A stretch of 64,000 bases of DNA from Escherichia coli (GCF_024223415.1 NZ_CP100500.1), one strand, 5' to 3'; shown: positions 8,934 through 64,000, numbered from the stretch's first letter. Notes: generated from the sequence alone by a model not told the origin. Made by a program: numbers and translations.

Positions 8934-10301
8934 TTAATCGCAGGCAACGATCTTCATTGCCAGGCCGCCGCGAGAGGTTTCGCGGTACTTGGCGTTCATA
9001 TCTTTACCTGTTTCGTACATGGTTTCGATAACTTTATCGAGGCAGACGCGCGGCTCGCTGGTACGGCGCAGTGCCATACGTGCGGCGTTCACCGCTTTTA
9101 CTGCCGCAATGGCGTTACGCTCGATGCATGGCACCTGTACCTGTCCGGCGACCGGGTCACACGTCAGACCGAGGTTGTGCTCCATGGCGATTTCCGCCGC
9201 GATGCACACCTGCGCCGGGCTTGCGCCTAATAGTTCTGCCAGACCAGCCGCCGCCATTGAGCACGCCACGCCAACTTCACCCTGGCAACCCACTTCAGCA
9301 CCAGAAATCGACGCGTTCATCTTATAAAGAGAACCAATGGCGCTGGCTACCAGCAGGTAACGAGCCAGTGAGTTAGCGTTCACTTCGCGGATAAACTTAT
9401 CGTAGTACGCCAGCACAGCCGGGATAATCCCGCACGCACCGTTAGTCGGCGCAGTCACCACGCGACCGCCAGCGGCGTTCTCTTCGTTCACTGCCAGTGC
9501 AAACATGTTGATCCAGTCAACAACCGCCATCGGGTCAGTGGTGGTTTTATCCTGGCTGACCAGCATCCGGCGTAGTGCCGCAGCACGGCGTGGAACGCGC
9601 AGTTTGCCAGGCAACACGCCTTCGGTAGAAATACCGCGCTCAATACCGCCGCGCATGACTTCCCAGACGTTCGCCAGGTGCTGTTCCAGCTCTTCTTTGC
9701 TGTGCAGCGCCAGCTCGTTTTTCATCATCAGGCCAGAGAGTGACAGCCCGGTTTCCTGACAATGTTTTTGCAGATCGGCTGCTGAACTGTACGGATAAGG
9801 AACTTCAACCGGTGCGCTATCCTGCTGGCCAAAATGCTCTTCATCAACGATAAAGCCACCGCCAATAGAGTAGTAAGTCTGACTGTAAACGACTTTATCA
9901 CCCGCCAGCGCGGTAATGCGCATACCGTTTTCATGCAGAGAAAGGTTGTCTGCATGGAAGTTCATGCACTGATCAACCGGGAACTCCACTTCATGCTGAC
10001 CGTTTGCCAGCATCAGGCGACCATGAGTATTCACATCCTGAATAAAACCAGGGATGGAATCGATATCCACGGTATCCGGCAGGTTACCCGCCAGGCCCAT
10101 AATAATGGCGATATCAGTGTGGTGGCCTTTACCAGTCAGAGAGAGCGAGCCGTACACGTCAACCACCACGCGGGTCACGTCTTTAAGCAGGTTACGGGCA
10201 ATCAGATCGTCGGTAAATTGTTTACCCGCTTTCATTGGTCCAACGGTATGAGAACTGGAAGGGCCAATGCCGATTTTGAAAATATCGAATACGCTAATCA
10301 T
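8934..10301 (-). CDS. sdaB: L-serine dehydratase 2
   Basis: 455-aa ORF MISVFDIFKIGIGPSSSHTVGPMKAG... (Fe-S serine dehydratase family). Confidence 0.95.
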   Translation of the reverse strand: MISVFDIFKIGIGPSSSHTVGPMKAGKQFTDDLIARNLLKDVTRVVVDVYGSLSLTGKGHHTDIAIIMGLAGNLPDTVDIDSIPGFIQDVNTHGRLMLANGQHEVEFPVDQCMNFHADNLSLHENGMRITALAGDKVVYSQTYYSIGGGFIVDEEHFGQQDSAPVEVPYPYSSAADLQKHCQETGLSLSGLMMKNELALHSKEELEQHLANVWEVMRGGIERGISTEGVLPGKLRVPRRAAALRRMLVSQDKTTTDPMAVVDWINMFALAVNEENAAGGRVVTAPTNGACGIIPAVLAYYDKFIREVNANSLARYLLVASAIGSLYKMNASISGAEVGCQGEVGVACSMAAAGLAELLGASPAQVCIAAEIAMEHNLGLTCDPVAGQVQVPCIERNAIAAVKAVNAARMALRRTSEPRVCLDKVIETMYETGKDMNAKYRETSRGGLAMKIVACD

Positions 10302-10358
10302 AGGAAATACATCGCGTTAAAACGGAGGAAGCGCCGCCCGAAAGCGGCGCGAAAGGAC

Positions 10359-11648
10359 TTAGCTGAACAGAGAGTAGAAGATTGCGGAGATTGCAATCAG
10401 ACCCATCACGACAACGAATACGTTGCTGATGTGACCGCTGTACTTACGCATTGCCGGTACTTTCTGAATTGCGTACATCGGCATCAGGAACAGGATCATC
10501 GCGATGATTGGGCCGCCCAGGGTTTCAATCATACCCAGGATGCTCGGGTTCAGGGTGGCAACAATCCAGGTCGTTACCAGCATGAACAGCGCAGTGATAC
10601 GGTTCAGCTTGTTGATTTCGATAGACTTACCTTTACCACGCAGAGATTTAATCACCATACCGTTGAAGCCTTCACGTGCGCCCAGGTAGTGGCCGAGGAA
10701 GGATTTGGTGATAGCGATAATCGCGATAATCGGAGCCATCCACGCGATAACCGGTGCGTTAAAGTGGTTAGCCAGGTAAGACAGAATCGAGATGTTCTGC
10801 TCTTTAGCCGCAGCCAGGTCTGCCGGAGTCAGGCTCAGTACGCAGCTGAAGACGAAGAACATTACGGTCAGCACCATCATGATGTGTGCGAATGCCAGGA
10901 TCTTCGAGCATTTCTGTTCTGCCATATCGCCGTACTCTTCACGCTTCGCAACGGCGAAAGAAGAGATGATCGGAGAGTGGTTGAACGAGAACACCATTAC
11001 CGGAATTGCCAGCCACAGGGTCATCCACAGACCGTTTCCGGTTGCAGATGCAGTGTCCAGAGACAGCGTTTCCAGTGCTGCGCCGTTCCACTGCGGGATC
11101 AGGTACAGAGCCAGCAGCATCAATACGCCAACAAACGGGAACACCAGAATACTCATCGCTTTAACGATCATCTGCTCACCGAAGCGAACGATGGTCATCA
11201 TACCCACGATCAGGATCAGCGACAGAATCGCACGCGGCGGTGGCGTCATACCCAGCTGGTGAGACATGAAGCTTTCAACTGTATTGGTGATTGCCACGCT
11301 ATAAACCAGCAGGATCGGGTAGATAGCGAAGAAGTAGAGCAGGGTAATCAGTTTACCTGCGCCAATACCAAAGTGTTCTTCTACAACCTCGGTGATGTCT
11401 TCGCCCGGGTTTTTACCAGACAGTACGAAGCGAGTCAGGCCGCGGTGAGCAAAAAACGTCATCGGGAACGCAAGGATAGCCATGATGATCAGCGGGATCA
11501 TACCGCCAACACCGGCGTTGATTGGCAGGAACAGCACGCCCGCGCCGATTGCCGTGCCGTAAAGGCCCAGCATCCACATGGTGTCTGTCTTGCGCCAGGC
11601 ACTACGAGAGTCTTTCGACGCAATCGTGCTGGTTTGAGTCGTTTCCAT
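10359..11648 (-). CDS. sdaC: Serine:H+ symporter (HAAAP family)
   Basis: 429-aa polytopic ORF; CAGGAG SD; immediately upstream of sdaB. Confidence 0.95.
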
Positions 11649-50872: not shown

Positions 50873-52672
50873 ATGACGACACAGGTCCCACCTTCCGCGT
50901 TGCTTCCGTTGAACCCGGAGCAACTGGCACGCCTTCAGGCGGCCACGACCGATTTAACTCCCACCCAGCTTGCCTGGGTTTCTGGCTATTTCTGGGGCGT
51001 GCTCAATCAGCAGCCTGCTGCGCTTGCAGCAACGCCAGCGCCAGCCGCAGAAATGCCGGGTATAACTATTATCTCCGCCTCGCAAACCGGCAATGCGCGC
51101 CGGGTTGCTGAAGCATTACGCGATGATTTATTGACGGCAAAACTGAACGTTAAGCTGGTGAGCGCGGGCGACTATAAATTCAAACAAATCGCCAGCGAAA
51201 AACTGCTTATCGTGGTGACGTCAACGCAAGGGGAAGGGGAACCGCCGGAAGAAGCCGTCGCGCTGCATAAGTTCCTGTTCTCCAAAAAAGCGCCGAAGCT
51301 GGAAAATACCGCTTTTGCCGTGTTTAGCCTCGGCGATAGTTCTTATGAATTTTTCTGCCAGTCCGGGAAAGATTTCGACAGCAAGCTGGCGGAACTGGGC
51401 GGTGAACGCCTGCTCGACCGTGTCGACGCCGACGTTGAATACCAGGCTGCTGCCAGCGAGTGGCGCACCCGCGTGGTTGATGCGCTTAAATCGCGTGCGC
51501 CTGTCGCGGCACCTTCGCAATCCGTCGCTACTGGCGCGGTAAATGAAATCCACACCAGCCCGTACAGCAAAGACGCGCCGCTGGTGGCTAGCCTCTCTGT
51601 TAACCAGAAAATTACCGGGCGTAACTCTGAAAAAGACGTTCGCCATATCGAAATTGACTTAGGTGACTCGGGCCTGCGCTATCAGCCGGGCGACGCGCTG
51701 GGCGTGTGGTATCAGAACGATCCGGCACTGGTGAAAGAACTTGTCGAACTGCTGTGGCTGAAAGGCGATGAAACTGTCACCGTTGACGGCAAAACGCTGA
51801 CCCTGCGCGAAGCGCTACAGTGGCACTTCGAACTGACGGTTAACACCGCCAATATCGTTGAGAACTATGCCACGCTTACCCGCAGTGAAACGCTGCTGCC
51901 GCTGGTGGGCGATAAAGCGAAGTTGCAGCATTACGCCGCGACCACGCCGATTGTCGATATGGTGCGTTTCTCTCCGGCACAGCTTGATGCTGAAGCGCTG
52001 ATTAACCTGCTGCGCCCGCTGACGCCGCGTCTCTATTCCATCGCCTCCTCGCAGGCGGAAGTCGAGAACGAAGTACACGTCACCGTTGGTGTGGTGCGTT
52101 ACGACGTGGAAGGCCGCGCCCGTGCCGGTGGTGCCTCCAGCTTCCTCGCTGACCGCGTGGAAGAAGAGGGCGAAGTCCGCGTATTTATCGAACATAACGA
52201 TAACTTTCGCCTGCCCGCTAACCCGGAAACCCCGGTGATTATGATAGGCCCAGGCACCGGTATTGCGCCGTTCCGCGCCTTTATGCAGCAACGCGCCGCT
52301 GACGAAGCGCCAGGTAAAAACTGGCTGTTCTTTGGCAATCCGCATTTTACGGAAGACTTCCTGTATCAGGTGGAGTGGCAGCGCTACGTCAAAGAGGGGG
52401 TGCTGACGCGGATCGATCTCGCCTGGTCGCGCGATCAAAAAGAAAAAGTTTACGTACAAGACAAACTGCGCGAACAGGGCGCGGAGCTGTGGCGCTGGAT
52501 CAATGACGGTGCCCACATTTATGTCTGCGGCGACGCTAATCGCATGGCGAAAGACGTTGAGCAGGCACTTCTGGAAGTGATTGCCGAATTTGGTGGCATG
52601 GACACCGAAGCGGCGGATGAATTTTTAAGTGAGCTGCGCGTAGAGCGCCGTTATCAGCGAGATGTCTACTAA
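50873..52672 (+). CDS. cysJ: Sulfite reductase (NADPH) flavoprotein alpha subunit
   Basis: 599-aa ORF; flavodoxin-like plus FAD/NADPH-binding domains. Confidence 0.96.
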
Positions 52673-54384
52673 TGAGCGAAAAACATCCAGGGCCTTTAGT
52701 GGTCGAAGGAAAACTGACAGACGCCGAGCGCATGAAGCTTGAAAGCAACTACCTGCGCGGCACCATTGCGGAAGATTTAAACGACGGTCTGACCGGCGGC
52801 TTTAAGGGCGACAACTTCCTGCTGATCCGCTTCCACGGCATGTATCAGCAGGATGACCGCGACATCCGCGCCGAACGTGCTGAACAGAAGCTGGAGCCGC
52901 GCCACGCGATGCTGTTGCGCTGTCGTCTGCCGGGTGGGGTGATTACCACTAAACAGTGGCAGGCGATCGACAAATTTGCCGGTGAAAACACCATCTATGG
53001 CAGCATTCGCCTGACCAACCGCCAGACGTTTCAGTTCCACGGCATTCTGAAAAAGAACGTCAAACCGGTGCACCAGATGCTGCACTCGGTCGGTCTTGAT
53101 GCGCTGGCGACCGCTAACGACATGAACCGTAACGTACTCTGCACCTCGAACCCTTACGAGTCGCAGCTACACGCGGAAGCGTATGAATGGGCGAAGAAAA
53201 TCTCTGAACATCTGCTGCCGCGTACCCGCGCGTATGCGGAGATCTGGCTCGATCAGGAAAAAGTCGCCACCACCGATGAAGAACCGATCCTCGGTCAGAC
53301 TTATTTGCCGCGTAAATTCAAAACCACGGTAGTGATCCCGCCGCAGAACGATATCGATCTGCATGCCAACGACATGAACTTCGTGGCAATCGCCGAAAAC
53401 GGCAAGCTGGTAGGCTTTAACCTGCTGGTGGGCGGCGGGCTTTCCATCGAACACGGTAATAAGAAAACCTACGCCCGCACGGCGAGCGAGTTTGGTTATC
53501 TGCCGCTGGAGCATACCCTGGCGGTGGCGGAAGCCGTCGTGACGACTCAGCGCGATTGGGGTAACCGTACCGATCGTAAAAATGCCAAAACCAAATACAC
53601 GCTGGAGCGCGTGGGTGTTGAGACATTTAAAGCGGAAGTGGAACGTCGCGCGGGGATCAAATTCGAGCCGATTCGCCCGTATGAGTTTACCGGACGCGGA
53701 GATCGTATTGGCTGGGTTAAGGGCATTGATGATAACTGGCACCTGACGCTGTTTATCGAAAATGGTCGCATCCTTGATTATCCGGGGCGTCCGCTGAAAA
53801 CCGGCCTGCTGGAGATCGCGAAGATCCACAAAGGTGATTTCCGCATTACGGCGAACCAGAATCTGATCATCGCCGGTGTGCCGGAAAGCGAGAAAGCGAA
53901 GATCGAGAAGATCGCCAAAGAGAGCGGGTTAATGAATGCCGTCACGCCGCAGCGTGAAAACTCAATGGCCTGCGTCTCGTTCCCGACTTGCCCGCTGGCG
54001 ATGGCGGAAGCGGAGCGTTTCCTGCCGTCTTTTATCGACAACATCGATAATTTAATGGCGAAACATGGTGTCAGCGATGAGCATATCGTGATGCGTGTAA
54101 CAGGCTGCCCGAACGGTTGTGGTCGCGCGATGCTGGCGGAAGTGGGTCTGGTGGGTAAAGCGCCGGGTCGCTACAACCTGCATCTTGGCGGCAACCGTAT
54201 TGGGACACGTATCCCACGAATGTATAAAGAAAACATCACCGAGCCGGAAATCCTGGCGTCGCTTGATGAACTGATAGGGCGCTGGGCGAAAGAGCGCGAA
54301 GCGGGTGAAGGCTTCGGCGACTTTACGGTGCGTGCAGGCATCATTCGCCCGGTGCTCGATCCGGCGCGCGATTTGTGGGATTAA
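52672..54384 (+). CDS. cysI: Sulfite reductase (NADPH) hemoprotein beta subunit
   Basis: 570-aa [25 protein letters not shown]...; start overlaps cysJ stop. Confidence 0.96.
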
Positions 54385-54398
54385 CCATCAGCCCGGTC

Positions 54399-54436
54399 TT
54401 GTAGGCCTGATAAGACGCGTGAGCGTCGCATCAGGC
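54399..54436. repeat. REP element between cysI and cysH
   Basis: TTGTAGGCCTGATAAGACGCGTGAGCGTCGCATCAGGC. Confidence 0.7.
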
Positions 54437-54457
54437 AAGGCAAACAGTGAGGAATCT

Positions 54458-55192
54458 ATGTCCAAACTCGATCTAAACGCCCTGAACGAACTGCCGAAGG
54501 TAGATCGCATTCTGGCGCTGGCGGAAACTAACGCCCAACTGGAAAAACTGGACGCTGAAGGCCGCGTAGCCTGGGCGCTGGATAATCTGCCCGGTGAATA
54601 TGTGCTTTCTTCCAGCTTCGGCATTCAGGCGGCGGTGAGCCTGCATCTGGTGAATCAGATTCGCCCGGATATTCCAGTGATCCTCACCGATACGGGTTAT
54701 TTGTTCCCGGAAACCTACCGCTTTATTGACGAGTTAACGGACAAACTCAAGCTCAACCTGAAAGTGTACCGTGCTACCGAAAGCGCAGCCTGGCAGGAAG
54801 CACGCTACGGAAAACTGTGGGAACAGGGCGTTGAAGGCATTGAAAAGTACAATGACATCAACAAAGTCGAACCGATGAACCGGGCGCTGAAAGAACTTAA
54901 CGCGCAAACGTGGTTTGCTGGTCTGCGCCGTGAACAATCCGGCAGCCGCGCCAATTTACCGGTGCTGGCAATTCAGCGTGGCGTATTTAAAGTGCTGCCG
55001 ATTATCGACTGGGATAACCGAACGATATATCAGTATCTACAAAAGCATGGCCTGAAATATCATCCATTATGGGACGAAGGATATTTATCGGTGGGCGATA
55101 CCCATACAACCCGTAAATGGGAACCCGGCATGGCGGAAGAAGAAACGCGTTTCTTTGGCTTAAAAAGGGAATGTGGGTTACACGAAGGGTAA
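54458..55192 (+). CDS. cysH: Phosphoadenosine phosphosulfate reductase
   Basis: ATG at 54458 ([19 protein letters not shown]..., 244 aa); the ORF track start at 54305 is an extension through the REP. Confidence 0.95.
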
Positions 55193-55456
55193 ATATTGCC
55201 GGATAAATTAAACGCCTCTGTCAGAAATGATGGGTGCGTTTTTATTTTGCGAGCAGCATTCCTGATTTTAAACGTGAACGCCGCTGGAAGAATTATCAGG
55301 TATAGAATGGCGTCGGGTGCTTGAGGCTGTCTGGCGTTAAGCATTCGCGAGGTTCCAGATGGACAAAAGCCCCAGGCGATATTTCTATCAACCTGAGGCC
55401 AGCGTTCGAACCTAAGCAATTCGGATGTTAGTCTCTTCTTTGCAGGGAGGCAAGAC

Positions 55457-55609
55457 ATGCTAACAAAATATGCCCTTGTGGCAATCATAGTACTGTGTTG
55501 TACAGTACTGGGATTCACGCTCATGGTAGGCGACTCGTTGTGTGAGTTGAGTATCAGAGAACGTGGTATGGAGTTTAAGGCTGTTCTCGCTTACGAATCG
55601 AAGAAGTAG
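55457..55609 (+). CDS. hokX: Hok/Gef-family type I toxin (hokX-like), 50 aa
   Basis: Below the ORF-track size cutoff; GGGAGG SD 6 nt upstream; [50 protein letters not shown] = one TM helix plus the Hok signature (SLCE...R...AYES). Confidence 0.8.
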
Positions 55610-55614
55610 CCACC

Positions 55615-55636
55615 ACGCGGGGGTAAAACCCCGCGT
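55615..55636 (+). terminator. Hairpin at the 3' end of the hok-like transcript
   Basis: ACGCGGGG-gtaaaa-CCCCGCGT, 8-bp GC-rich stem, weak U tract. Confidence 0.5.
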
Positions 55637-55801
55637 ATTGAATTGTGATGGTTTGGTCTCCTGCACCCTTTTTTAAATTTATATTTTTTATGTGAATATA
55701 TTGTCTCTATTTATTATTATGAATTTCAAATGAAAATCATAAATTTATTCACAATATAAATGTTTTATTGGCTGATATATATCACAGATAATTTTTAAAA
55801 T
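55637..55801. promoter_or_regulatory. AT-rich region upstream of cas3 (probable cas promoter, likely H-NS target)
   Basis: About 165 bp, strongly AT-rich, immediately 5' of cas3. Confidence 0.5.
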
Positions 55802-58501
55802 ATGCGTAAATATCCTTTAAGTTTACTGAAGGATAAAAATATTGTGACTTTCTTTGATTTCTGGGGAAAAACCCGACGCGACGAGAAAGAAGGGGGTGAC
55901 GACTATCACCTTCTTTGCTGGCATTCGCTGGATGTGGCCGCGATGGGCTATTTAATGGTTAAAAGAAATTGCTTCGGGCTGGCTGATTATTTCCGTCAAT
56001 TAGGGATTTCTGACAAGGAACAGGCGGCTCAATTTTTCGCCTGGTTGTTGTGCTGGCACGATATTGGAAAATTTGCCCGCTCATTTCAGCAACTTTACCT
56101 GCACCCACAACTCAAGGTTCCGGAAGGCGCAAGAAAGAATTACGAAAAGATCTCTCATTCAACGCTGGGCTACTGGCTGTGGCATCATTATTTAAGTGAA
56201 TGCGAAGAATTGCTTCCTGCCTCTTCACTCTCTACTCGCAAACTTAAACGTGTAATAGCGATGTGGATGCCCATGACTACCGGGCATCATGGTCGCCCGC
56301 CTGACCGTATTGATGAACTGGATAATTTTCTGCCTGAAGACAAAGCTGCCGCGCGAGATTTTCTCCTTGAAATCAAGCCACTGTTTCCGCAGCTAGAGAT
56401 CCCCGCATTCTGGGATGATGACGAGGGCGTTGAACTTATAAAACAACTTTCCTGGTATATCTCTGCAACCGTCGTACTTGCAGACTGGACAGGATCGTCA
56501 ACGCGATTTTTTCCACGCGTCGCACAGACAATGGATATTGAAGATTACTGGCAAAAGGCTTTAGTTCAGGCTCAAAACGCATTAACCGTCTTTCCTCCAA
56601 AAGCAGAAACCGCGCCTTTCACCGGAATTAATACGCTGTTTCCTTTTATTGAGAATCCGAAACCGTTACAGCAAAAGGTGCTGGATCTGGATATCAGCCA
56701 GCCAGGACCGCAGTTATTTATTCTGGAGGATGTAACCGGCGCAGGTAAAACAGAAGCGGCGCTTATCCTGGCACACAGGTTGATGGCTGCGGGTAAAGCT
56801 CAGGGTTTGTTTTTTGGCCTGCCAACAATGGCAACGGCCAATGCCATGTACGATCGGCTGGTCAAAACCTGGCTTTCTTTCTATTCGCCAGAATCCCGCC
56901 CCAGCCTGGTGCTGGCACACAGTGCCCGCACATTAATGGACCGCTTTAATGAATCACTCTGGTCCGGTGATTTAGTCGGGTCAGAAGAACCGGATGAACA
57001 AACGTTCAGTCAGGGATGTGCGGCCTGGTTTGCCGACAGTAACAAGAAGGCGTTGCTGGCTGAAATTGGCGTCGGCAAGCTGGATCAGGCGATGATGGCA
57101 GTGATGCCGTTTAAACATAATAATCTGCGGCTTCTGGGGTTGAGTAACAAAATCCTGCTGGCTGATGAGATCCACGCCTGTGACGCTTACATGTCGTACA
57201 TTCTTGAAGGGTTGATTGAGCGACAGGTGCGTGGCGGAAACAGCGTCATTTTGCTTTCTGCTACGTTATCTCAACAGCAGCGCGACAAACTTGTCGCCGC
57301 CTTTGCGCGTGGCACAGAGGGCCAGCAAGAAGCTCCGTTCCTGGAAAAGGATGATTACCCCTGGCTGACGCATGTCACGAAATCCGATGTGCATTCGCAC
57401 CGGGTAGCGACGCGCAAAGACGTTGAGCGTAGCGTGAGCGTGGGTTGGCTTCATAGCGAACAAGAATGTATTGCGCGTATCGAATCAGCGGTAAGTCAGG
57501 GGAAATGCATCGCCTGGATCCGGAATTCTGTCGATGACGCTATTAAGGTTTATCGTCAGTTACTTGCCCGCGGCGTCATTCCTGCTTCCAGCCTTTCACT
57601 TTTTCATAGCCGCTTTGCTTTTAGCGATCGCCAGCGAATTGAAACGGAAACGCTGGCACGCTTTGGTAAAAATTGTAGTTTAAAAAGATCATCTCAAGTC
57701 ATTGTTTGTACACAAGTAATTGAGCAAAGTGTGGATATTGACCTGGACGAAATGATCTCCGACCTGGCCCCCATTGATTTGCTGATCCAGCGAGCGGGGC
57801 GATTACAACGGCATATTCGCGATATTAATGGTCAGTTAAAGCGTGATGGAAAAGACGAGCGTTCCCCTCCTGAATTGCTGATTCTGGCCCCCGTCTGGGA
57901 CGACGCTCCTGGTGACGAATGGTTCGGCAGTGCCATGCGTAACAGTGCATATGTCTACCCGGATCATGGGCGAATCTGGCTGACCCAGCGTGTGCTGCGT
58001 GAGCAAGGCGTTATTCAGATGCCACACTCAGCCCGCCTTCTTATTGAATCAGTCTACGGTGAGGACGTGGTAATGCCGGACGGATTTGCCCGCAGCGAGC
58101 AGGAGCAAGTGGGCAAATATTACTGCGATCGCTCAATGGCTAAAAAGTTTGTGCTGAACTTCAGGCCCGGCTATGCCGCCAATATCAACGATTACCTTCC
58201 GGAAAAGCTGTCGACACGTCTGGCTGAGGAATCTGTTTCCCTGTGGCTGGCTAGCTGTATTAACGGCGTGGTGAAGCCTTATGCCAGCGGTGCTCACGCA
58301 TGGGAAATGAGCGTTGTCAGAGTGCGCCGAAGCTGGTGGAAAAAACATCGGGATGAGTTTTCTTTACTGGAAGGGGAAGTGTTAAGGCAGTGGTGCATTG
58401 AACAGCGGCAAGATCCGGAGATGGCAAACGTGATTTTAGTCACCGATGACGAAAGTTGCGGGTATTCGGCTACGGAAGGATTGATTGGCAAGGTTGATTG
58501 A
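55802..58501 (+). CDS. cas3: Cas3 helicase-nuclease (HD domain plus superfamily-2 helicase), type I-E
   Basis: 899-aa ORF; HD motif (HLLCWHSLDVAA...WHDIGKF), Walker A (TGAGKTEAA), DEAH-like (LLADEIHA); start may be internal (GTG at 55844) because the ATG at 55802 lacks an SD. Confidence 0.92.
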   Translation: MRKYPLSLLKDKNIVTFFDFWGKTRRDEKEGGDDYHLLCWHSLDVAAMGYLMVKRNCFGLADYFRQLGISDKEQAAQFFAWLLCWHDIGKFARSFQQLYLHPQLKVPEGARKNYEKISHSTLGYWLWHHYLSECEELLPASSLSTRKLKRVIAMWMPMTTGHHGRPPDRIDELDNFLPEDKAAARDFLLEIKPLFPQLEIPAFWDDDEGVELIKQLSWYISATVVLADWTGSSTRFFPRVAQTMDIEDYWQKALVQAQNALTVFPPKAETAPFTGINTLFPFIENPKPLQQKVLDLDISQPGPQLFILEDVTGAGKTEAALILAHRLMAAGKAQGLFFGLPTMATANAMYDRLVKTWLSFYSPESRPSLVLAHSARTLMDRFNESLWSGDLVGSEEPDEQTFSQGCAAWFADSNKKALLAEIGVGKLDQAMMAVMPFKHNNLRLLGLSNKILLADEIHACDAYMSYILEGLIERQVRGGNSVILLSATLSQQQRDKLVAAFARGTEGQQEAPFLEKDDYPWLTHVTKSDVHSHRVATRKDVERSVSVGWLHSEQECIARIESAVSQGKCIAWIRNSVDDAIKVYRQLLARGVIPASSLSLFHSRFAFSDRQRIETETLARFGKNCSLKRSSQVIVCTQVIEQSVDIDLDEMISDLAPIDLLIQRAGRLQRHIRDINGQLKRDGKDERSPPELLILAPVWDDAPGDEWFGSAMRNSAYVYPDHGRIWLTQRVLREQGVIQMPHSARLLIESVYGEDVVMPDGFARSEQEQVGKYYCDRSMAKKFVLNFRPGYAANINDYLPEKLSTRLAEESVSLWLASCINGVVKPYASGAHAWEMSVVRVRRSWWKKHRDEFSLLEGEVLRQWCIEQRQDPEMANVILVTDDESCGYSATEGLIGKVD

Positions 58502-58598
58502 GATGTCTGCGACAGGACTCTCTGAATAGTTGATATACAGAAAAGGATGGAAAGATGGACAACCGACCTGGGATGGTCTTTTTTACGAGAGGATGCGT

Positions 58599-60161
58599 AT
58601 GAACTCGTTTTCACTTCTGACAACCTCGTGGTTGCCCGTTCGTTTTAAAGACGGAACGACAGGCAAACTGGCACCAGTCGATCTGGCTGATGAAAATGTT
58701 GTCGATATCGCTGCGCCGCGGGCAGATCTCCAGGGTGCGGCATGGCAGTTTTTGCTGGGGCTACTACAAACCAGCTTCGCGCCAAAAGATCATCGTCGTT
58801 GGGATGATATCTGGGAAGACGGACTGGAATCTGAAAAGCTACGGGAAGCATTGCTGTCATTAGAACACGCTTTCCAGTTTGGGCCAGATTCCCCTTCATT
58901 TATGCAGGATTTCGAGGCGCTCACGGGAGATAAAGTTCAGATCGCTTCGTTACTGCCTGAGATTCCCGGCGCTCAAACAACGAAGTTTAATAAAGACCAT
59001 TTTATCAAGCGTGGTGTAACGGAATACCTGTGTCCTCATTGTTCAGCGTTAGCCCTGTTCTCCCTACAGTTAAATGCACCGTCAGGCGGCAAAGGCTATC
59101 GCACCGGTTTACGCGGCGGTGGGCCGATGACCACTCTTATTGAATTACAGGAATATCAGGGCAATCAACAAACACCCTTATGGCGCAAACTGTGGCTCAA
59201 TGTGATGCCGCAGGATGAAGCCGACTTACCGCTACCCAAAAAATTTGACGATCTGATTTTCCCCTGGCTTGGCCCGACGCGTACCAGCGAACTGGCCGGT
59301 GCGGTGGTAACCGATGATCAGGTTAATAAACTCCAGGCGTACTGGGGAATGCCACGGCGTATTCGTATTGATTTTAATACCACGACAGTCGGCAACTGCG
59401 ATATTTGCGGCGAGCAGAACGACGCGCTCCTGAACCTGATGACGACCAAAAATTACGGCGCTAACTATGCCATGTGGCAGCATCCCTTAACGCCTTACCG
59501 TATACCACTTAAAGAGGGTGGCGAGTTTTACTCCGTTAAACCACAACCGGGCGGTTTAATCTGGCGCGACTGGTTAGGCCTTATCGAAACGGGTAAATCA
59601 GAAAACAATACGGAACTTCCCGCGCTGGTGGTGAAACTCTTTAATGCCAGCAGTCTGAAACAGGCAAAAGTGGGCCTATGGGGATTTGGTTATGATTTCG
59701 ACAATATGAAAGCGCGCTGTTGGTACGAACACCATTTCCCGCTGCTGCTCAATAAAAAAGAAGGCCAGATACCGAAACTGCGGCTGGCTGCGCAAACGGC
59801 TTCACGGATTCTGAGTCTGTTACGGAGTGCATTGAAAGAAGCGTGGTTCTCCGATCCAAAAGGTGCACGGGGTGATTTCAGTTTTGTGGATATCGACTTC
59901 TGGAACAAAACTCAGCATCGCTTCCTGAGGTTAGTGCGCCAAATTGAAGAAGGTCAGGATCCAGATGAATTACTCGGCAAATGGCAAAAGGAAATTTGGT
60001 TATTTGCGCGTCAGGATTTTGACGAGCGTGTATTCACCAATCCTTATGAGCCCGTTGATTTGAAACGCGTCATGACCGCACGCAAGAAATATTTTACAAC
60101 ATCGGCGGAGAAGCAAAATGCTAAAGCCGCCAGGGAGAAAAAGCAGGAGGCTGCTGAATGA
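58599..60161 (+). CDS. cse1: Cascade large subunit Cse1 (CasA / Cas8e)
   Basis: ORF track begins at a TTG (58530); the ATG at 58599 (MNSFSLLTTSWLPVRFKDG...) has a GAGAGG SD; Cse1 N-terminal signature; 520 aa. Confidence 0.88.
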   Translation: MNSFSLLTTSWLPVRFKDGTTGKLAPVDLADENVVDIAAPRADLQGAAWQFLLGLLQTSFAPKDHRRWDDIWEDGLESEKLREALLSLEHAFQFGPDSPSFMQDFEALTGDKVQIASLLPEIPGAQTTKFNKDHFIKRGVTEYLCPHCSALALFSLQLNAPSGGKGYRTGLRGGGPMTTLIELQEYQGNQQTPLWRKLWLNVMPQDEADLPLPKKFDDLIFPWLGPTRTSELAGAVVTDDQVNKLQAYWGMPRRIRIDFNTTTVGNCDICGEQNDALLNLMTTKNYGANYAMWQHPLTPYRIPLKEGGEFYSVKPQPGGLIWRDWLGLIETGKSENNTELPALVVKLFNASSLKQAKVGLWGFGYDFDNMKARCWYEHHFPLLLNKKEGQIPKLRLAAQTASRILSLLRSALKEAWFSDPKGARGDFSFVDIDFWNKTQHRFLRLVRQIEEGQDPDELLGKWQKEIWLFARQDFDERVFTNPYEPVDLKRVMTARKKYFTTSAEKQNAKAAREKKQEAAE

Positions 60162-60694
60162 GTATTGTAAAAGAGGAGCACAAAGCCACGCTGCGTAAAT
60201 GGCACGAAGAGTTGCAGGCTAAACGCGGCAATCGTGCCAGTCTGCGGCGTAGCACAACGGTTAATGATGTTTGCTTGTCAGAAGGGTTTCGTTCTCTGCT
60301 GATGCAGACCCACACTTTGTGGAAAATTGAAGCACAAGAGTGGCGTTTTACCGCACTGGCGCTGGTCGCCGCAGTTAGCGCCAATGTAAAAGCCATTGAT
60401 GAACGGCAGCCTTTTGCCGCGCAGCTGGCGGCGGTAATGTCGGAGGGGCGTTTTACTCGCCTGTCGGCAGTAAAAACGCCGGATGATTTACTGCGTCAGT
60501 TACGTCGCGCGGTCAAATTATTAAACGGTTCCGTCAATCTTATCTCTTTGGCAGAAGATATTTTCCGCTGGTGTCAGGAGAGCGACGACCTGCTCAATCA
60601 TCACCGCCGCCAGCAGCGGCCAACCGAATTTATCCGTATCCGCTGGGCACTGGAATATTACCAGGCTGGCGACGCCGATAACGAACAAAATTAA
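60158..60694 (+). CDS. cse2: Cascade small subunit Cse2 (CasB)
   Basis: 178-aa ORF; ATGA overlap with cse1; position in operon. Confidence 0.85.
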   Translation: MSIVKEEHKATLRKWHEELQAKRGNRASLRRSTTVNDVCLSEGFRSLLMQTHTLWKIEAQEWRFTALALVAAVSANVKAIDERQPFAAQLAAVMSEGRFTRLSAVKTPDDLLRQLRRAVKLLNGSVNLISLAEDIFRWCQESDDLLNHHRRQQRPTEFIRIRWALEYYQAGDADNEQN

Positions 60695-60708
60695 TAAAGG
60701 ACTATCTC

Positions 60709-61764
60709 ATGACAACATTTATTCAGCTTCATTTGTTAACCGCTTACCCTGCTGCCAACCTTAACCGTGATGATACTGGTGCGCCAAAAACTGTGGTACT
60801 GGGTGGTGCAACGCGTCTGCGCGTTTCCTCACAAAGTCTGAAACGTGCGTGGCGCACTTCTGCACTTTTTGAACAGGCACTGGCGGGCCATATTGGTATT
60901 CGCAGTGGGCGAATTGCGCGTGAGGCGGCAACTATCCTGATTGAGAAAGGAATCGAAGAGAAAAAAGCCATCGAATGGGCGGCAAAAATTGCGGATTATC
61001 TTGGGAAAGCTAAAAACGACAAAAAACCAAAAGATCCGCTCACTAACGCCGAAACTGAACAATTAGTTCATATCAGCCCGGCAGAATTTGACGCCGTAAA
61101 AGCGCTGGCCCATCAACTGGCAGAAGAAAAGCGCGCGCCAATAGAGGAAGATCTCGCGTTGTTACGTAAAGACCGTATAGCGGTAGATATCGCTATGTTT
61201 GGTCGTATGCTGGCGAATAAACCTGAGTTTAATGTTGAAGCCGCCTGCCAGGTCGCGCATGCGTTTGGTGTCAGTGAAACGATTGTCGAAGATGATTTTT
61301 TCACCGCCGTTGATGATTTGCGCCAGGCCTCTGAAGATGCCGGTGCCGGGCATCTCGGAGAAACCGGATTCGGTTCAGCACTTTTCTACACCTATATCTG
61401 CATTGATAAAGATCTGCTGGTAGAAAACCTCGGCGGTGACGAAGCGTTAGCTAATCAGACCATACGCGCTTTTACGGAAGCCGCACTTAAAGTCTCCCCA
61501 ACCGGCAAACAGAACAGCTTTGCCAGCCGTGCCTACGCCTCCTGGGCGCTGGCAGAAAAAGGCACCGAACAACCGCGTTCTCTGGCGGCGGCTTTCTATG
61601 AACCCATTAATGGCACCCGGCAGTTAGATGTGGCGGTGCAGCGTATTACAACGCTTCGCGAAAACATGAATACGGTCTACGAACAGAAGACCGAATGCGT
61701 AAGTTTTGACGTGATGAACAAACAGGGAAGCATGAAGGACGTGCTGGACTTTATCTGCGCGTAA
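60709..61764 (+). CDS. cas7: Cascade backbone subunit Cas7 (CasC)
   Basis: 351-aa ORF MTTFIQLHLLTAYPAANLNRDDTGAPKTVVLGGATRLRVSSQSLKRAWR. Confidence 0.9.
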   Translation: MTTFIQLHLLTAYPAANLNRDDTGAPKTVVLGGATRLRVSSQSLKRAWRTSALFEQALAGHIGIRSGRIAREAATILIEKGIEEKKAIEWAAKIADYLGKAKNDKKPKDPLTNAETEQLVHISPAEFDAVKALAHQLAEEKRAPIEEDLALLRKDRIAVDIAMFGRMLANKPEFNVEAACQVAHAFGVSETIVEDDFFTAVDDLRQASEDAGAGHLGETGFGSALFYTYICIDKDLLVENLGGDEALANQTIRAFTEAALKVSPTGKQNSFASRAYASWALAEKGTEQPRSLAAAFYEPINGTRQLDVAVQRITTLRENMNTVYEQKTECVSFDVMNKQGSMKDVLDFICA

Positions 61765-61774
61765 GGGGCGGCTT

Positions 61775-62521
61775 ATGAGCCAATATCTGATTTTTCAGCT
61801 TCATGGGCCGATGGCATCCTGGGGCGTCGATGCTCCCGGCGAAGTGCGTCATACCCATGAACTGCCTTCGCGCTCAGCATTGCTGGGGTTACTGGCTGCC
61901 GGGGTAGGGATTCGGCGTGATGATACCGAACGATTAAACGCGTTTAACCGCCACTATTCACTGGTGGTTTGCGCCAGCCGTAACCCGCGCTGGGCACGGG
62001 ATTATCACACGGTCCAGATGCCAAAAGAGGTGCGTAAATCGCGTTATTTCAGCCGTCGCGAAGAGTTGAGCGATCCTGATCTTCTGAGCGCAATTATCTC
62101 CCGGCGCGACTACTACACCGATGCCTGGTGGATGGTGGCGGTGGCAACAACCCCCGATGCGCCTTACAGCCTTGAACAGTTGCAGGAAGGTTTACGTCAT
62201 CCGGTTTTTCCGCTTTATCTGGGGCGAAAAAGTCATCCGCTGGCATTACCACTCGCGCCGTTACTGATCGAAGGCAACGCGTCTGATGCCTTATGTAACG
62301 CATACCAACAGTATCAGGATAGTTTCCGCGAACTGAAAGTCTCACTCCCGAAACTTCAGGATGAATGCTGGTGGGAAGGGAAACACGACGGCCTGGTCGC
62401 GAGCAAAATATTACGTCGCCGGGATGTTCCTTTGAATCGTCAGCAGTGGCTGTTTGGGGAACGCACCGTCAATCAGGGGCCGTGGCTCAGCAAGGAGGAA
62501 CCATGTACCTCTCAAGAATAA
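61775..62521 (+). CDS. cas5: Cascade subunit Cas5 (CasD)
   Basis: 248-aa ORF MSQYLIFQLHGPMASWGVDAPGEVRHT... Confidence 0.9.
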   Translation: MSQYLIFQLHGPMASWGVDAPGEVRHTHELPSRSALLGLLAAGVGIRRDDTERLNAFNRHYSLVVCASRNPRWARDYHTVQMPKEVRKSRYFSRREELSDPDLLSAIISRRDYYTDAWWMVAVATTPDAPYSLEQLQEGLRHPVFPLYLGRKSHPLALPLAPLLIEGNASDALCNAYQQYQDSFRELKVSLPKLQDECWWEGKHDGLVASKILRRRDVPLNRQQWLFGERTVNQGPWLSKEEPCTSQE

Positions 62522-63153
62522 CCTTACATACCGGCCAGCTTTCGCCTGCGCAGTTGTTGCATCTGGTGGATCGCGGTGAATATGTGATGCATCAGTGGCT
62601 GTGGGATCTCTTCCCAGGCGGCAAAGAAAGGCAATTTCTTTATCGTCGGGAAGAACTCCAGGGCGCGTTTCGCTTTTTTGTCCTGTCGCAGGAACGCCCG
62701 GCGGAAAGTGAAATGTTCACCATCGAATGCCGACCATTTGCGTCGGAGTTGCGTACCGGACAATCGCTTTGTTTCAACCTGCGGGCGAATCCAACAATCT
62801 GTAAAGCGGGCAAGCGCCACGATCTGCTGATGGAAGCGAAACGGCAGGTGAGGGGGCAGGCGGAAGGAAGTGATGTCTGGTTGCATCAACAACAGGCAGC
62901 GCTGGACTGGCTGGCAGCGCAGGGGGAGAGAAGCGGTTTTACACTGCTGGATACCTCGGTTGATGCCTACCGACAACAGCAACTCCGGCGGGAAAACTCC
63001 CGACAACTGATCCAGTTCAGTAGCGTGGATTATACGGGGATGCTTACGGTCACCGATCCTGGGTTATTTCTGCAACGTCTGAGCCAGGGGTATGGCAAAA
63101 GCCGCGCGTTCGGCTGTGGTCTGATGCTGATCAAACCCGGAGCAGAGGCGTGA
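62503..63153 (+). CDS. cas6e: crRNA endoribonuclease Cas6e (CasE)
   Basis: ATG at 62503 with AGGAGG SD (MYLSRITLHTGQ..., 216 aa); C-terminal GCGLM motif; overlaps cas5 by 19 nt. Confidence 0.88.
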   Translation: MYLSRITLHTGQLSPAQLLHLVDRGEYVMHQWLWDLFPGGKERQFLYRREELQGAFRFFVLSQERPAESEMFTIECRPFASELRTGQSLCFNLRANPTICKAGKRHDLLMEAKRQVRGQAEGSDVWLHQQQAALDWLAAQGERSGFTLLDTSVDAYRQQQLRRENSRQLIQFSSVDYTGMLTVTDPGLFLQRLSQGYGKSRAFGCGLMLIKPGAEA

Positions 63154-64000
63154 CGTTTGTACCACTGAGTCCGATCCCGTTAAAAGATCGCACCTCTATG
63201 ATCTTCCTCCAGTACGGTCAAATCGACGTACTGGACGGCGCTTTCGTGCTGATCGACAAAACCGGGATCCGCACGCACATTCCGGTGGGATCGGTCGCCT
63301 GCATTATGCTCGAACCGGGAACGAGAGTTTCCCACGCGGCGGTGCATCTGGCCGCCACGGTGGGAACACTGCTGGTCTGGGTCGGTGAAGCGGGCGTTCG
63401 CGTTTACTCTTCCGGACAACCCGGAGGGGCGCGGGCAGATAAATTACTCTACCAGGCAAAGCTGGCTTTAACGGAAGATCTACGCCTGAAGGTGGTGCGC
63501 AAAATGTATGAATTACGTTTTCGTGAGCCACCGCCAGCTCGCCGTTCAGTGGATCAGCTACGGGGAATTGAGGGATCCCGCGTTCGCCAGACCTATGCAT
63601 TACTGGCGAAACAATATGGTGTGAAATGGAATGGTCGCAAATACGATCCTAAAGACTGGGAAAAAGGCGATGTTGTGAATCGCTGCATCAGTGCTGCCAC
63701 ATCATGTCTGTACGGTATTTCTGAAGCGGCAGTATTAGCCGCGGGATATGCGCCCGCTATTGGATTTATTCATAGTGGCAAACCGCTTTCATTTGTTTAT
63801 GACATAGCCGATATCATTAAATTTGATTCGGTTGTGCCAAAGGCATTTGAAATAGCGGCAAGACACCCGGCAGAATCTGATAAAGAAGTCAGATTAGCCT
63901 GTCGCGATATTTTCCGTAGCACTAAGTTAACGGGCAAATTAATACCGTTAATTGAGGAAGTCCTTGCTGCAGGTGAAATTGAACCACCACAACCCGCGCC
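63150..64000 (+). CDS. cas1: Cas1 integrase; N-terminal about 283 codons, 3' end beyond window
   Basis: GTG at 63150 (GTGA overlap with the cas6e stop); translation VTFVPLSPIPLKDRTSMIFLQYGQIDVLDGAFVLIDKTGIRTHIPVGSVACIMLEPGTRVSHAAV...; absent from ORF track because there is no stop in the window. Confidence 0.92.
   Translation, partial: MTFVPLSPIPLKDRTSMIFLQYGQIDVLDGAFVLIDKTGIRTHIPVGSVACIMLEPGTRVSHAAVHLAATVGTLLVWVGEAGVRVYSSGQPGGARADKLLYQAKLALTEDLRLKVVRKMYELRFREPPPARRSVDQLRGIEGSRVRQTYALLAKQYGVKWNGRKYDPKDWEKGDVVNRCISAATSCLYGISEAAVLAAGYAPAIGFIHSGKPLSFVYDIADIIKFDSVVPKAFEIAARHPAESDKEVRLACRDIFRSTKLTGKLIPLIEEVLAAGEIEPPQPA

Follow-up and report, generated by a model that had tools for sequence, protein, structure and literature searches.

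Two forms of the type I-E cas operon are known in Escherichia coli (Touchon & Rocha 2010, PMC2886076; PMC12736100, 2025). For one of them, var. B-8552, the published table gives cas1 lengths of 924/918 bp and an identity to K-12 of 73% at the nucleotide and 84% at the amino acid level (PMC12736100, 2025). Salmonella cas-STM and cas-STY likewise represent two operon types in one species, unlike everywhere except in cas1 and cas2 (82–87% amino acid identity), and leaders and operons of the cas-STM type have been reported from numerous strains of Escherichia, Shigella and Klebsiella (PMC7712790). Recombination between adaptation and effector modules is a general CRISPR-Cas phenomenon, tallied by Makarova et al. 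2025 (PMC12669027).

Here we describe the cas operon in a stretch of 64,000 nucleotides from E. coli (GCF_024223415.1, NZ_CP100500.1; hereafter the window), which E. coli SCU-316 matches at 100% identity. The operon is the already described, majority non-K-12 variant, one side of a dimorphism published in 2010, 2020 and 2025, and is labeled W1 in the present analysis. It shares the cysH-hok ... iap locus, the gene order and the pattern of identity to K-12 with var. B-8552 and the O157:H7-type operon, and its gene lengths equal those of var. B-8552 (2,700, 1,563, 537, 1,056, 747, 651 and 924 bp). The O157:H7 operon is 95% identical to the window at the nucleotide level over 8.4 kb, with per-gene identities of 87–99.7%: the two are 4–13% apart in cas3, cse1 and cse2 and <1% apart in cas1, cas2 and the leader.

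The W1 segment (at least 80% present) was found in 2,419 of 5,426 complete E. coli genomes, compared with 1,115 for the K-12 cassette, and among the genomes listed the operon was 92–100% identical, with 96% or more of the query covered. The window's own allele is rare: only six of the 5,426 genomes match it at 99% identity or more. Within E. coli, the whole segment from cas3 to the leader exists as alternative alleles, the K-12 form and the W1 form. The Salmonella dimorphism follows the same pattern, and W1 is related to the cas-STM group; Salmonella's alternative type, however, has a W2-like cassette, whereas that of E. coli is the K lineage.

Operon content and chromosomal setting

Positions 55802–64000 hold an intact cas3-cse1-cse2-cas7-cas5-cas6e-cas1 series, bounded by cysH/hok-sok on one side and the window end on the other. 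The features are as follows:

55315..55472, + strand: type I toxin-antitoxin locus hok/sok, match to the sok antisense-RNA family (Rfam RF01794; 110 bits, gathering score 59)
55457..55609, + strand: hok/gef-family toxin coding sequence (RefSeq annotation of the 100%-identical SCU-316)
55676..55801, + strand: AT-rich tract just 5' of cas3 (15.1% G+C, by composition)
55802–58501, + strand: cas3, HD nuclease and helicase, 899 aa (NCBIfam cas3_HD and cas3_core above cut-off)
58502–58598, + strand: cas3–cse1 spacer, 97 bp, 45% G+C
58599–60161, + strand: cse1/casA (Cas8e), 520 aa (TIGR02547, 609 bits)
60158–60694, + strand: cse2/casB (Cas11), 178 aa, 4-nt overlap with cse1 (TIGR02548, 102 bits)
60709–61764, + strand: cas7e/casC, 351 aa (TIGR01869, 446 bits)
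61775–62521, + strand: cas5e/casD, 248 aa (TIGR01868, 159 bits)
62503–63153, + strand: cas6e/casE, 216 aa, 19-nt overlap with cas5 (TIGR01907, 289 bits)
63085..63150, no strand: boundary between modules and a recent recombination breakpoint within the variant (SNP lists and sliding identity)
63150–64000, + strand: cas1e, GTG start, 4-nt overlap with the cas6e stop (TIGR03638, 380 bits)

The sequence-only reading had called this operon type I-E by motif and order, and both family matches and gene order bear that out. All seven proteins exceed the NCBIfam curated cut-offs for type I-E families (in bits: Cse1 70, Cse2 28.5, Cas7e 178, Cas6e 45 and Cas1e 216), including the signature genes cse1 (cas8e, TIGR02547) and cse2 (cas11e, TIGR02548), the Cas3 HD-helicase fusion and the Cas7e, Cas5e, Cas6e and Cas1e subfamilies. 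Against the K-12-trained models PRK09694 and PRK09693, the window proteins score below cut-off. The genes are co-oriented in the order cas3-cse1-cse2-cas7-cas5-cas6e-cas1-cas2, with cas2 lying past the window and read in SCU-316. Since cas1 leaves the window at its end, with 283 of 307 codons inside, SCU-316 also supplied the rest of cas1 and, after cas2, a 96-bp leader and an array of 14 copies of the 29-nt I-E repeat GTGTTCCCCGCGCCAGCGGGGATAAACCG.

We placed the cse1 start at the ATG of MNSFSLL; an ORF started by TTG at 58530 is a mechanical ORF only. The N-terminus of Cas6e is MYLSRITLHTGQ, in agreement with the earlier reading, and direct reading of the window and K-12 translations places a histidine at position 20, which we take to be the catalytic residue, as in K-12 CasE. 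In a two-sequence alignment of window and K-12 Cas1, E141, H208 and D221, the active-site residues of K-12 Cas1, are invariant. All cas reading frames are intact, and the operon is expected to function as an ordinary I-E system would. By family membership, Cse1, Cse2, Cas7, Cas5 and Cas6e would form Cascade, Cas6e would cut pre-crRNA, Cas3 would degrade the target and Cas1-Cas2 would insert spacers into the array.

Upstream, core-genome homology to K-12 (96.7%, blastn) stops at 55459, within the hok/sok locus that lies between cysH and cas3; hok is intact in the window, unlike at the K-12 locus. In cas-less E. coli, homology reaches ~55675 with iap directly next, on matches that cover query positions 1–76 only. 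The AT-rich region that had been noticed upstream of cas3 is real (15% G+C at 55676–55801) and is a candidate regulated promoter region. A promoter scan of this tract returned one weak sigma-70-like match (55772–55801), a count no better than in shuffled sequences. In two other strains, IS421 is inserted in the AT-rich tract upstream of cas3.

The cas3–cse1 spacer and transcription

Transcription of cas3 through cas1 as one unit from upstream of cas3, as the sequence-only reading had proposed, is plausible. It was correct that the 97-bp gap is shorter than that of K-12, where the cas3–casA spacer measures 414 bp. Only Escherichia has the 97-bp form; gaps elsewhere in the lineage measure 10–11 bp (11 bp in Salmonella diarizonae), so that Escherichia has gained ~86 bp. 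Because relatives have gaps this short, which leave no intergenic room, and because the spacer is not AT-rich, a single unit that starts upstream of cas3 is favored; the only strongly AT-rich tract is the one upstream of cas3. In silico scans of 58502–58598 returned neither a sigma-70-like nor a terminator-like call, and RNA folding there was not significant (z = −0.44).

Alternatively, as in K-12 and S. Typhi, cas3 may be a separate unit, with a promoter for cse1 to cas2 lying either within the 97-bp spacer or at the 3' end of cas3. In K-12, casA has its own regulated promoter region, 414 bp long, and the ~86 bp gained in Escherichia points the same way. Separate cas3 and cse1-cas2-CRISPR transcription units have also been reported in S. 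Typhi (PMC8039139), but that operon belongs to the other lineage (cas-STY, W2-like; PMC7712790). The 45% G+C of the spacer and the scans above also speak against this arrangement, which we regard as a serious possibility that falls short of even chances.

Divergence from K-12 and its sources

The window and K-12 operons agree in subtype, gene order and chromosomal locus. Their 29-nt repeats differ at one position, and their leaders (96 nt in W1, 105 nt in K-12) are similar in length and visibly related. The window operon has a higher G+C content (50–55% versus 44–48%). As the earlier reading had stated, the interference proteins differ strongly from those of K-12: local tblastn against MG1655 gave identities of 28% for Cas3, 21% for Cse1, 31% for Cas7, 34% for Cas5 and 27% for Cas6e, and no match between Cse2 and CasB. 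Blastn found no homology to K-12 between window positions 55459 and 63162, so the interference genes are not DNA-alignable, as those of a K-12 variant would be. Cas1 and Cas2, in contrast, are 84% and 85% identical to K-12.

That reading had further held that Cas1 is close to K-12, which is true of the protein but not of the DNA. The stretch MIFLQYGQIDV...SHAAV has one mismatch to K-12 in 49 residues, while cas1 is 70–73% identical at the DNA level, with a longest exact shared run of 14 nt. Silent sites are saturated (pS 0.82 for cas1, as high as for Cascade genes, and 0.71 for cas2, versus 0.12–0.15 for the flanking cysJIH). Measured by the refuting condition that the sequence-only reading had set, divergence from K-12 is uniform across the cas genes at silent sites but not at replacement sites, where dN is 0.13 for cas1 and 0.7–1.0 for the interference genes.

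An identity of 84% carries no K-12 signal, because Cas1e is 74–99% identical among 80 loci that range from Enterobacterales to marine Gammaproteobacteria. This sample, in which each species is represented by one genome, comprises only the best Cas1 matches and is biased toward conserved Cas1. Window Cas1 is equally 84% identical to Pectobacterium, Zobellella and Marinospirillum and 92–99% identical to its W1 relatives. At the DNA level, window cas1 is 96–99% identical to W1 alleles; the window does not combine, as a K-12/W1 recombinant operon would, one module nearly identical to the K-12 type with another nearly identical to the W1 type.

In bootstrapped neighbor-joining trees (simple distances, some start codons chosen automatically), Cas1 and every interference protein place the window with Salmonella, Klebsiella and Citrobacter. 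Support for the W1 clade including the window was 94 for Cas1, 98 for Cas7, 100 for Cas3 and Cse1 and 92 for Cas5 and Cas6e; for Cas2, which is too short to resolve, it was 8. K-12 Cas1 falls in another clade. Monophyly of the K lineage is supported at 82–100% by all five interference proteins and at 0% by Cas1 and Cas2: the K-12 cassette groups with loci of C. amalonaticus and marine taxa, while K-12 Cas1 nests among enterobacterial loci with the other cassette lineage. It is 92–95% identical to loci whose Cas7 is only ~31% like that of K-12, and just 86% identical to C. amalonaticus, the closest cassette relative of K-12. The incongruence between Cas1 and cassette belongs to the K-12 operon, not the window operon.

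With high confidence, then, we interpret the window as an intact, common non-K-12 I-E operon (W1, equal to var. B-8552 and the O157:H7 form) at cysH-hok/sok ... iap, with adaptation and interference modules of one lineage. The jump in identity would have two causes. First, purifying selection appears far stronger on Cas1 and Cas2: a comparison of ten E. coli W1 alleles gave dN/dS values of 0.029 (cas1) and 0.027 (cas2), with 0.07–0.22 for the others. Measured against Salmonella diarizonae, which among the W1 relatives used for dN is the nearest outside Escherichia, dN rises smoothly (cas1 0.03, cas7 0.09, cas6e 0.15, cas3 0.24), with identities of 95% for Cas1, 85% for Cas7 and 69% for Cas3. 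The K-12-like look of window Cas1 is thus attributed to a protein that barely changes in the whole group, not to recent recombination. Second, whole interference cassettes were probably exchanged, anciently and repeatedly, against a host-anchored cas1-cas2-leader-repeat unit, as is visible in the K-12 operon.

Constraint by itself, with K-12-type and W1-type operons diverging as whole units and no module exchange, would account for part of these data. Within E. coli and between genera, dN/dS is 3–8 times lower for cas1/cas2 than for interference genes, synonymous sites are saturated against K-12 in all genes, and rate ratios within E. coli alone roughly predict the observed dN for cas3, cse1 and cse2. 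We nevertheless consider it highly improbable given the absence of a K lineage in the Cas1 and Cas2 trees. In addition, Pectobacterium and K-12 have equal Cas1 dN to the window (0.12–0.13) but a two-fold different Cas7 dN (0.38 versus 0.76), and same-genus pairs with different cassettes, described below, share Cas1 at 90–100% amino acid identity (bootstrap 91–100) with DNA homology restarting at cas1.

The cas6e–cas1 junction

The sequence-only reading had inferred that, in this strain's lineage, a divergent cassette was joined near 63150 to a K-12-type cas1. The protein-identity step at the junction is sharp (~27% to 84%), and a hybrid does exist in E. coli: BS-04, one of 5,426 genomes, combines a K cassette with a W1-type cas1 ("W-cas1"), and crosses over within the initial 30 nt of cas1. 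This is the opposite combination, and a chimeric query of W1 cas6e and K-12 cas1 found no hybrid in the 5,426 genomes and nothing above the parental 87%. Together with the saturated silent sites of cas1, a Cas1 no nearer to K-12 than to Pectobacterium or marine taxa, and the single clade shared by Cas1 and cassette, these results largely refute a K-12/foreign chimera, which we judge exceedingly unlikely. Third-position G+C drops from 59% in cas6e to 47% in cas1, as would fit an old junction and the chimera model and runs counter to our interpretation; cas7 is also at 47%.

What stands of that proposal is the junction itself, a genuine module boundary where recombinants form. The sliding-identity comparison that it had suggested located a breakpoint at 63085–63150, within the variant and not against K-12: relative to O157:H7 and SC406 alleles, SNPs in the window are spaced ~33 bp apart as far as 63084/63149, after which 600–700 bp contain none. 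At this within-variant scale the window is mosaic, an observation that counts against our interpretation.

Cassette replacement at cas6e–cas1 was seen in seven same-genus or same-family pairs. In all seven, the upstream flank is DNA-homologous and homology returns exactly at cas1 or the gene just before; Cas1 is 90–100% identical, while the interference proteins (Cse1, Cas7 and the rest) are only 23–41% identical. These pairs bear the signature counted as module swap in PMC12669027, and the window's operon does not. Relative to the general swaps covered there, the exchange here involves deep lineages of a single subtype and takes place at orthologous chromosomal loci, with its boundary at cas6e–cas1.

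We tentatively propose, as a reading with somewhat less than an even chance of being right, that cas6e–cas1 is a recurrent and perhaps mechanistically favored crossover of this I-E clade. Cassettes from cas3 to cas6e, drawn from three or more deep lineages (K, W and O), would be swapped in place against a chromosome-inherited, host-anchored cas1-cas2-leader-repeat unit, with K-12 an old swap and BS-04 a fresh one. Repeats track host and Cas1, not cassette lineage; on this proposal, the near-identity of the repeat read by each lineage is what would allow swapping. If recurrent crossover is real, escape from inhibitors of Cascade or Cas3 may drive the swapping.

Gene content, neighbourhood and transcription

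The gene calls of the sequence-only reading, from cas3 to a partial cas1, hold, with all seven Cas proteins of the window (7/7) passing the curated NCBIfam type I-E cut-offs; some start codons were picked automatically. From cse1 onward, neighbouring genes overlap or are spaced by 10–14 nt. E. coli SCU-316 matches the segment 55600–64000 at 100% identity and shows what lies beyond it: the rest of cas1 (924 nt in full), then cas2, a leader of 96 nt, an array of 14 repeats and iap.

Features of the cas operon and its upstream flank (window coordinates)
50873–55192, cysJIH, 96–97% nucleotide identity to K-12, upstream of hok/sok and the cas operon
55315–55472, sok, Rfam match, part of the hok/sok toxin–antitoxin locus
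55457–55609, hok coding sequence
55676–55801, AT-rich tract, 126 bp, 15% G+C
55802–58501, cas3
58502–58598, cas3–cse1 spacer, 97 bp
58599–60161, cse1
60158–60694, cse2
60709–61764, cas7
61775–62521, cas5
62503–63153, cas6e
63150 to window end, cas1, GTG start

The hok/sok type I toxin–antitoxin locus (55315–55609) is intact between cysH and cas3, while K-12 retains only a sokX remnant. Core-level homology to K-12 (96.7%) ends at 55459, the start of hok; in cas-less E. coli strains (L085), homology extends to ~55675 and iap directly follows hok. The cysJIH genes (50873–55192) share just 96.4–97.1% DNA identity with K-12; their dS (0.13–0.16) seems large for the E. coli core genome and would be consistent with a phylogroup that is itself divergent, or with a flank of the CRISPR locus that is prone to recombination. 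Decay is common in E. coli operons of the W1 type, the non-K-12 variant carried by the window: strains H7 and P470 (L091 and L092) have an IS421 insertion in the AT-rich hok–cas3 tract (locus 1334–2446, window ~55700–55800), cas3 is frameshifted in H7, and cas1 is interrupted by a stop codon in an ST69 strain (L087).

The short cas3–cse1 spacer was read correctly, at 97 bp compared with 414 bp between cas3 and casA in K-12, and has 45% G+C. A consensus scan for promoters and terminators over 55150–58750 gave counts no better than shuffles and no call in the spacer; the only plus-strand promoter match upstream of cas3 ends at the cas3 ATG. RNA folding of the spacer was not significant (z = −0.44) and did not support a weak GACC...GGTC+T6 hairpin spotted there by eye. 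The sole strongly AT-rich tract lies upstream of cas3. In W1 relatives (Salmonella diarizonae, Citrobacter sedlakii, C. youngae, K. grimontii and Phytobacter) the cas3–cse1 gap is 10–11 bp, which argues that the ancestral W1 design was one unit read from upstream of cas3. Separate transcription of cas3 and cse1–cas2 is the alternative: S. Typhi has been reported to transcribe cas3 and cse1–cas2–CRISPR separately (PMC8039139), and the 89–97-bp spacer is specific to Escherichia, a lineage-specific gain of ~86 bp. S. Typhi carries the other lineage, however (cas-STY, W2-like; PMC7712790), and a review (PMC10013973) says nothing of the position of its promoter. On these sequence features we lean towards the single transcript from upstream of cas3 that had been proposed from the sequence.

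Similarity of Cas1 to K-12

As the sequence-only reading had it, the interference proteins are far from those of K-12 MG1655 and Cas1 is close (21–34% versus 84%): local protein identities were 28% for Cas3, 21% for Cse1, 31% for Cas7, 34% for Cas5, 27% for Cas6e, 84% for Cas1 and 85% for Cas2, with no match for Cse2 in this comparison. Global DNA alignment of the interference genes to K-12 revealed no homology and is meaningless. The Cas1 stretch described as nearly verbatim K-12 contains 1 mismatch in 49 residues.

This closeness is confined to the protein and is no sign of recombination. DNA identity of cas1 to K-12 is only 70–73%, and synonymous sites of cas1 and cas2 are fully saturated, with pS (0.82 and 0.71) no lower than in the Cascade genes (0.74–0.84), as against 0.12–0.15 in the flanking cysJIH. 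The sole measure that differs is non-synonymous distance, at 0.13 for cas1 versus 0.7–1.0 for the remaining genes. The two cas1 genes have no exact run in common longer than 14 nt, which is below what RecA-dependent exchange usually needs. We therefore rejected the idea that cas1 became K-12-like through recombination. As a test of mosaicism, G+C and GC3 were ambiguous: K-12 has almost no GC3 step from casE to cas1, and the window has a step from cas6e to cas1 and none from cas7 to cas1.

A Cas1 profile scan of one genome per species yielded 80 loci, chosen by Cas1 similarity and 74–99% identical to the window Cas1, which span Enterobacterales, Oceanospirillales, Alteromonadales, Methylophaga and even Parasutterella. 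Because Cas1 is equally close to Pectobacterium (84%), Zobellella (83%) and Marinospirillum (83%), the 84% identity says nothing special about K-12. Loci from Marisediminitalea (L057) and an Alteromonas MAG (L058) have unrelated interference cassettes and 100% identical Cas1 proteins encoded by DNA that is 88% identical (10001–10921; pS 0.50), a pair that indicates extreme purifying selection on Cas1e. Across ten E. coli W1-type alleles, dN/dS was 0.029 for cas1, 0.027 for cas2, 0.07 for cas7, 0.12–0.15 for cas6e, cas5, cse1 and cas3, and 0.22 for cse2. In this I-E clade, Cas1 protein identity plateaus at 75–85% and is a poor guide to how closely loci are related.

Lineages and the cas6e–cas1 junction

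Bootstrapped neighbour-joining (distance-based) trees were built. The Cas7 tree contains deep lineages, among them W (subclade W1 and a large W2), K and O (few loci). W1 comprises the window, E. albertii, Salmonella diarizonae, Klebsiella, Citrobacter youngae, C. sedlakii, Atlantibacter RC6 and Parasutterella; K comprises K-12, C. amalonaticus, Erwinia endophytica, a Pantoea, Oceanospirillum linum, Marinomonas rhodophyticola, Methylophaga lonarensis, Cycloclasticus and others. The W1 clade including the window is recovered with Cas1 (bootstrap 94) and with every interference protein (92–100), so the window operon is coherent, and a foreign cassette joined to a K-12-like cas1 is not supported. 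Monophyly of K is supported by Cas3, Cse1 and Cas7 (100%), Cas5 (84%) and Cas6e (82%) but by neither Cas1 nor Cas2 (0%), and same-genus pairs with different cassettes are united in the Cas1 tree (91–100%) and in no interference-gene tree. The K-12 Cas1 is 92–95% identical to those of Enterobacteriaceae UBA5654, Raoultella terrigena, C. portucalensis and Pluralibacter, whose Cas7 is ~31% identical to K-12 and 56–59% to the window; C. amalonaticus, the nearest cassette relative of K-12, has a Cas7 74% identical to that of K-12, yet its Cas1 is only 86% identical. By these trees and identities, it is K-12 whose Cas1 history conflicts with its cassette.

The operon of the gut betaproteobacterium Parasutterella excrementihominis (L069) is sister to the enterobacterial W1 operon in Cas1 and interference-gene trees, which suggests whole-operon transfer between gut taxa. 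Two short contigs, from a 'Bacillota bacterium' MAG (L003) and a 'Collinsella sp.' MAG (L077), carry cas genes mostly 94–99% identical to E. coli (87% for Cse2 of L077) and are almost certainly mis-binned E. coli.

In seven same-genus or same-family pairs, DNA homology runs along the upstream flank to cas3 and then restarts at the start of cas1 (position 12227 in K-12, where cas1 begins at 12229; 10001, 9995 and 10013 in other pairs) or, in some marine pairs, at an inserted KilA-N gene just ahead of it. Repeats track the host and Cas1 rather than the cassette lineage which, with the restart of homology at cas1, places a boundary between two histories at cas6e–cas1. Recombination between adaptation and effector modules is a recognised general phenomenon (PMC12669027). 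The KilA-N protein (~273 amino acids; no NCBIfam match, Pfam PF04383 at E = 1e-21) lies between cas6e and cas1 in the Alteromonas MAG (9177–9998) and in L074 (9135–9959), and likewise in the Marisediminitalea locus, L073 and Methylophaga loci; it thus occurs in several marine gammaproteobacterial I-E loci and moves with the cas1 side of the boundary.

Chimeric junction queries against 5,426 complete E. coli genomes were judged by identity and bit score, coverage being uninformative because megablast extends through the 72%-identical half. They found no W1-cas6e/K-cas1 hybrid and exactly one K-casE/W1-cas1 hybrid, in strain BS-04 (L093, assembly GCF_044648255.1, NZ_CP172819.1, 8901–10830). BS-04 has 100% K-12-type sequence up to ~27 nt into cas1, casE included, crosses over at about cas1 codons 9–11 at a microhomology of a few nucleotides, and is then 100% identical to the W1-type cas1–cas2–leader of TW10573 and 2015C-3163. 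The hybrid rests on a single assembly and could be an assembly artefact. The breakpoint postulated at cas6e/cas1 thus falls on a real recombinant site, as BS-04 illustrates, but the window is not itself a K-12/W1 recombinant.

Variation within E. coli and its meaning

W1, the form in the window, is the more common of the two, found in 2,419 of the 5,426 genomes against 1,115 for the K-12 cassette; K-12, the laboratory model, is the minority form. The two are whole-segment alleles, different all the way from cas3 to the leader that follows cas2 (~70% identity from cas1 to the leader), which fits the whole-locus replacement proposed for E. coli cas by Touchon and Rocha (PMC2886076). Within W1, alleles are very diverse and patchy (π 0.02–0.12 in 200-nt windows across ten E. 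coli genomes). The operon's peaks coincide with polymorphic blocks in cas3 (57547–57747), cse1 (58747–59947, one strain) and cse2 (60147–60347), where DNA identity falls to about 80%, with values of 65–82% in some of the ten genomes, and adjoining sequence is at 94–98%; these blocks are dimorphic, as if alleles had been imported from another species. Compared with O157:H7, SNPs in the window are spaced by ~33 bp on average as far as 63149 and are then absent until 63857, a run with a chance of ~5e-10 at a 3% SNP rate by our own arithmetic; cas1, cas2 and the leader are 99.2–100% identical, cas3 93.8% and cse2 86.7%. The cas6e–cas1 junction of the window is therefore a recent breakpoint within W1.

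Two operon forms that have only cas1 and cas2 conserved between them have been published for E. coli (PMC2886076, 2010; PMC12736100, 2025) and Salmonella (PMC7712790, 2020), and the variant table of PMC12736100 matches the window in gene lengths and in cas1 identity to K-12 (73% nucleotide, 84% amino acid). The window finding is this known dimorphism of E. coli I-E operons; the cross-genus in-place cassette replacements, like the BS-04 hybrid, add further cases to a type of event already recognised. Searches of the literature for I-E-specific module swaps and for older accounts of the two E. coli variants returned nothing specific. One such older account is reportedly that of Díez-Villaseñor in 2010.

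If the wider pattern is true, one interference cassette could stand in for another on an adaptation and array chassis that stays fixed, which would bear on how Cas1–Cas2 from one lineage work together in primed adaptation with the Cas3 and Cascade of another, and on how the spacer memories already in the array outlast an exchange of effectors.
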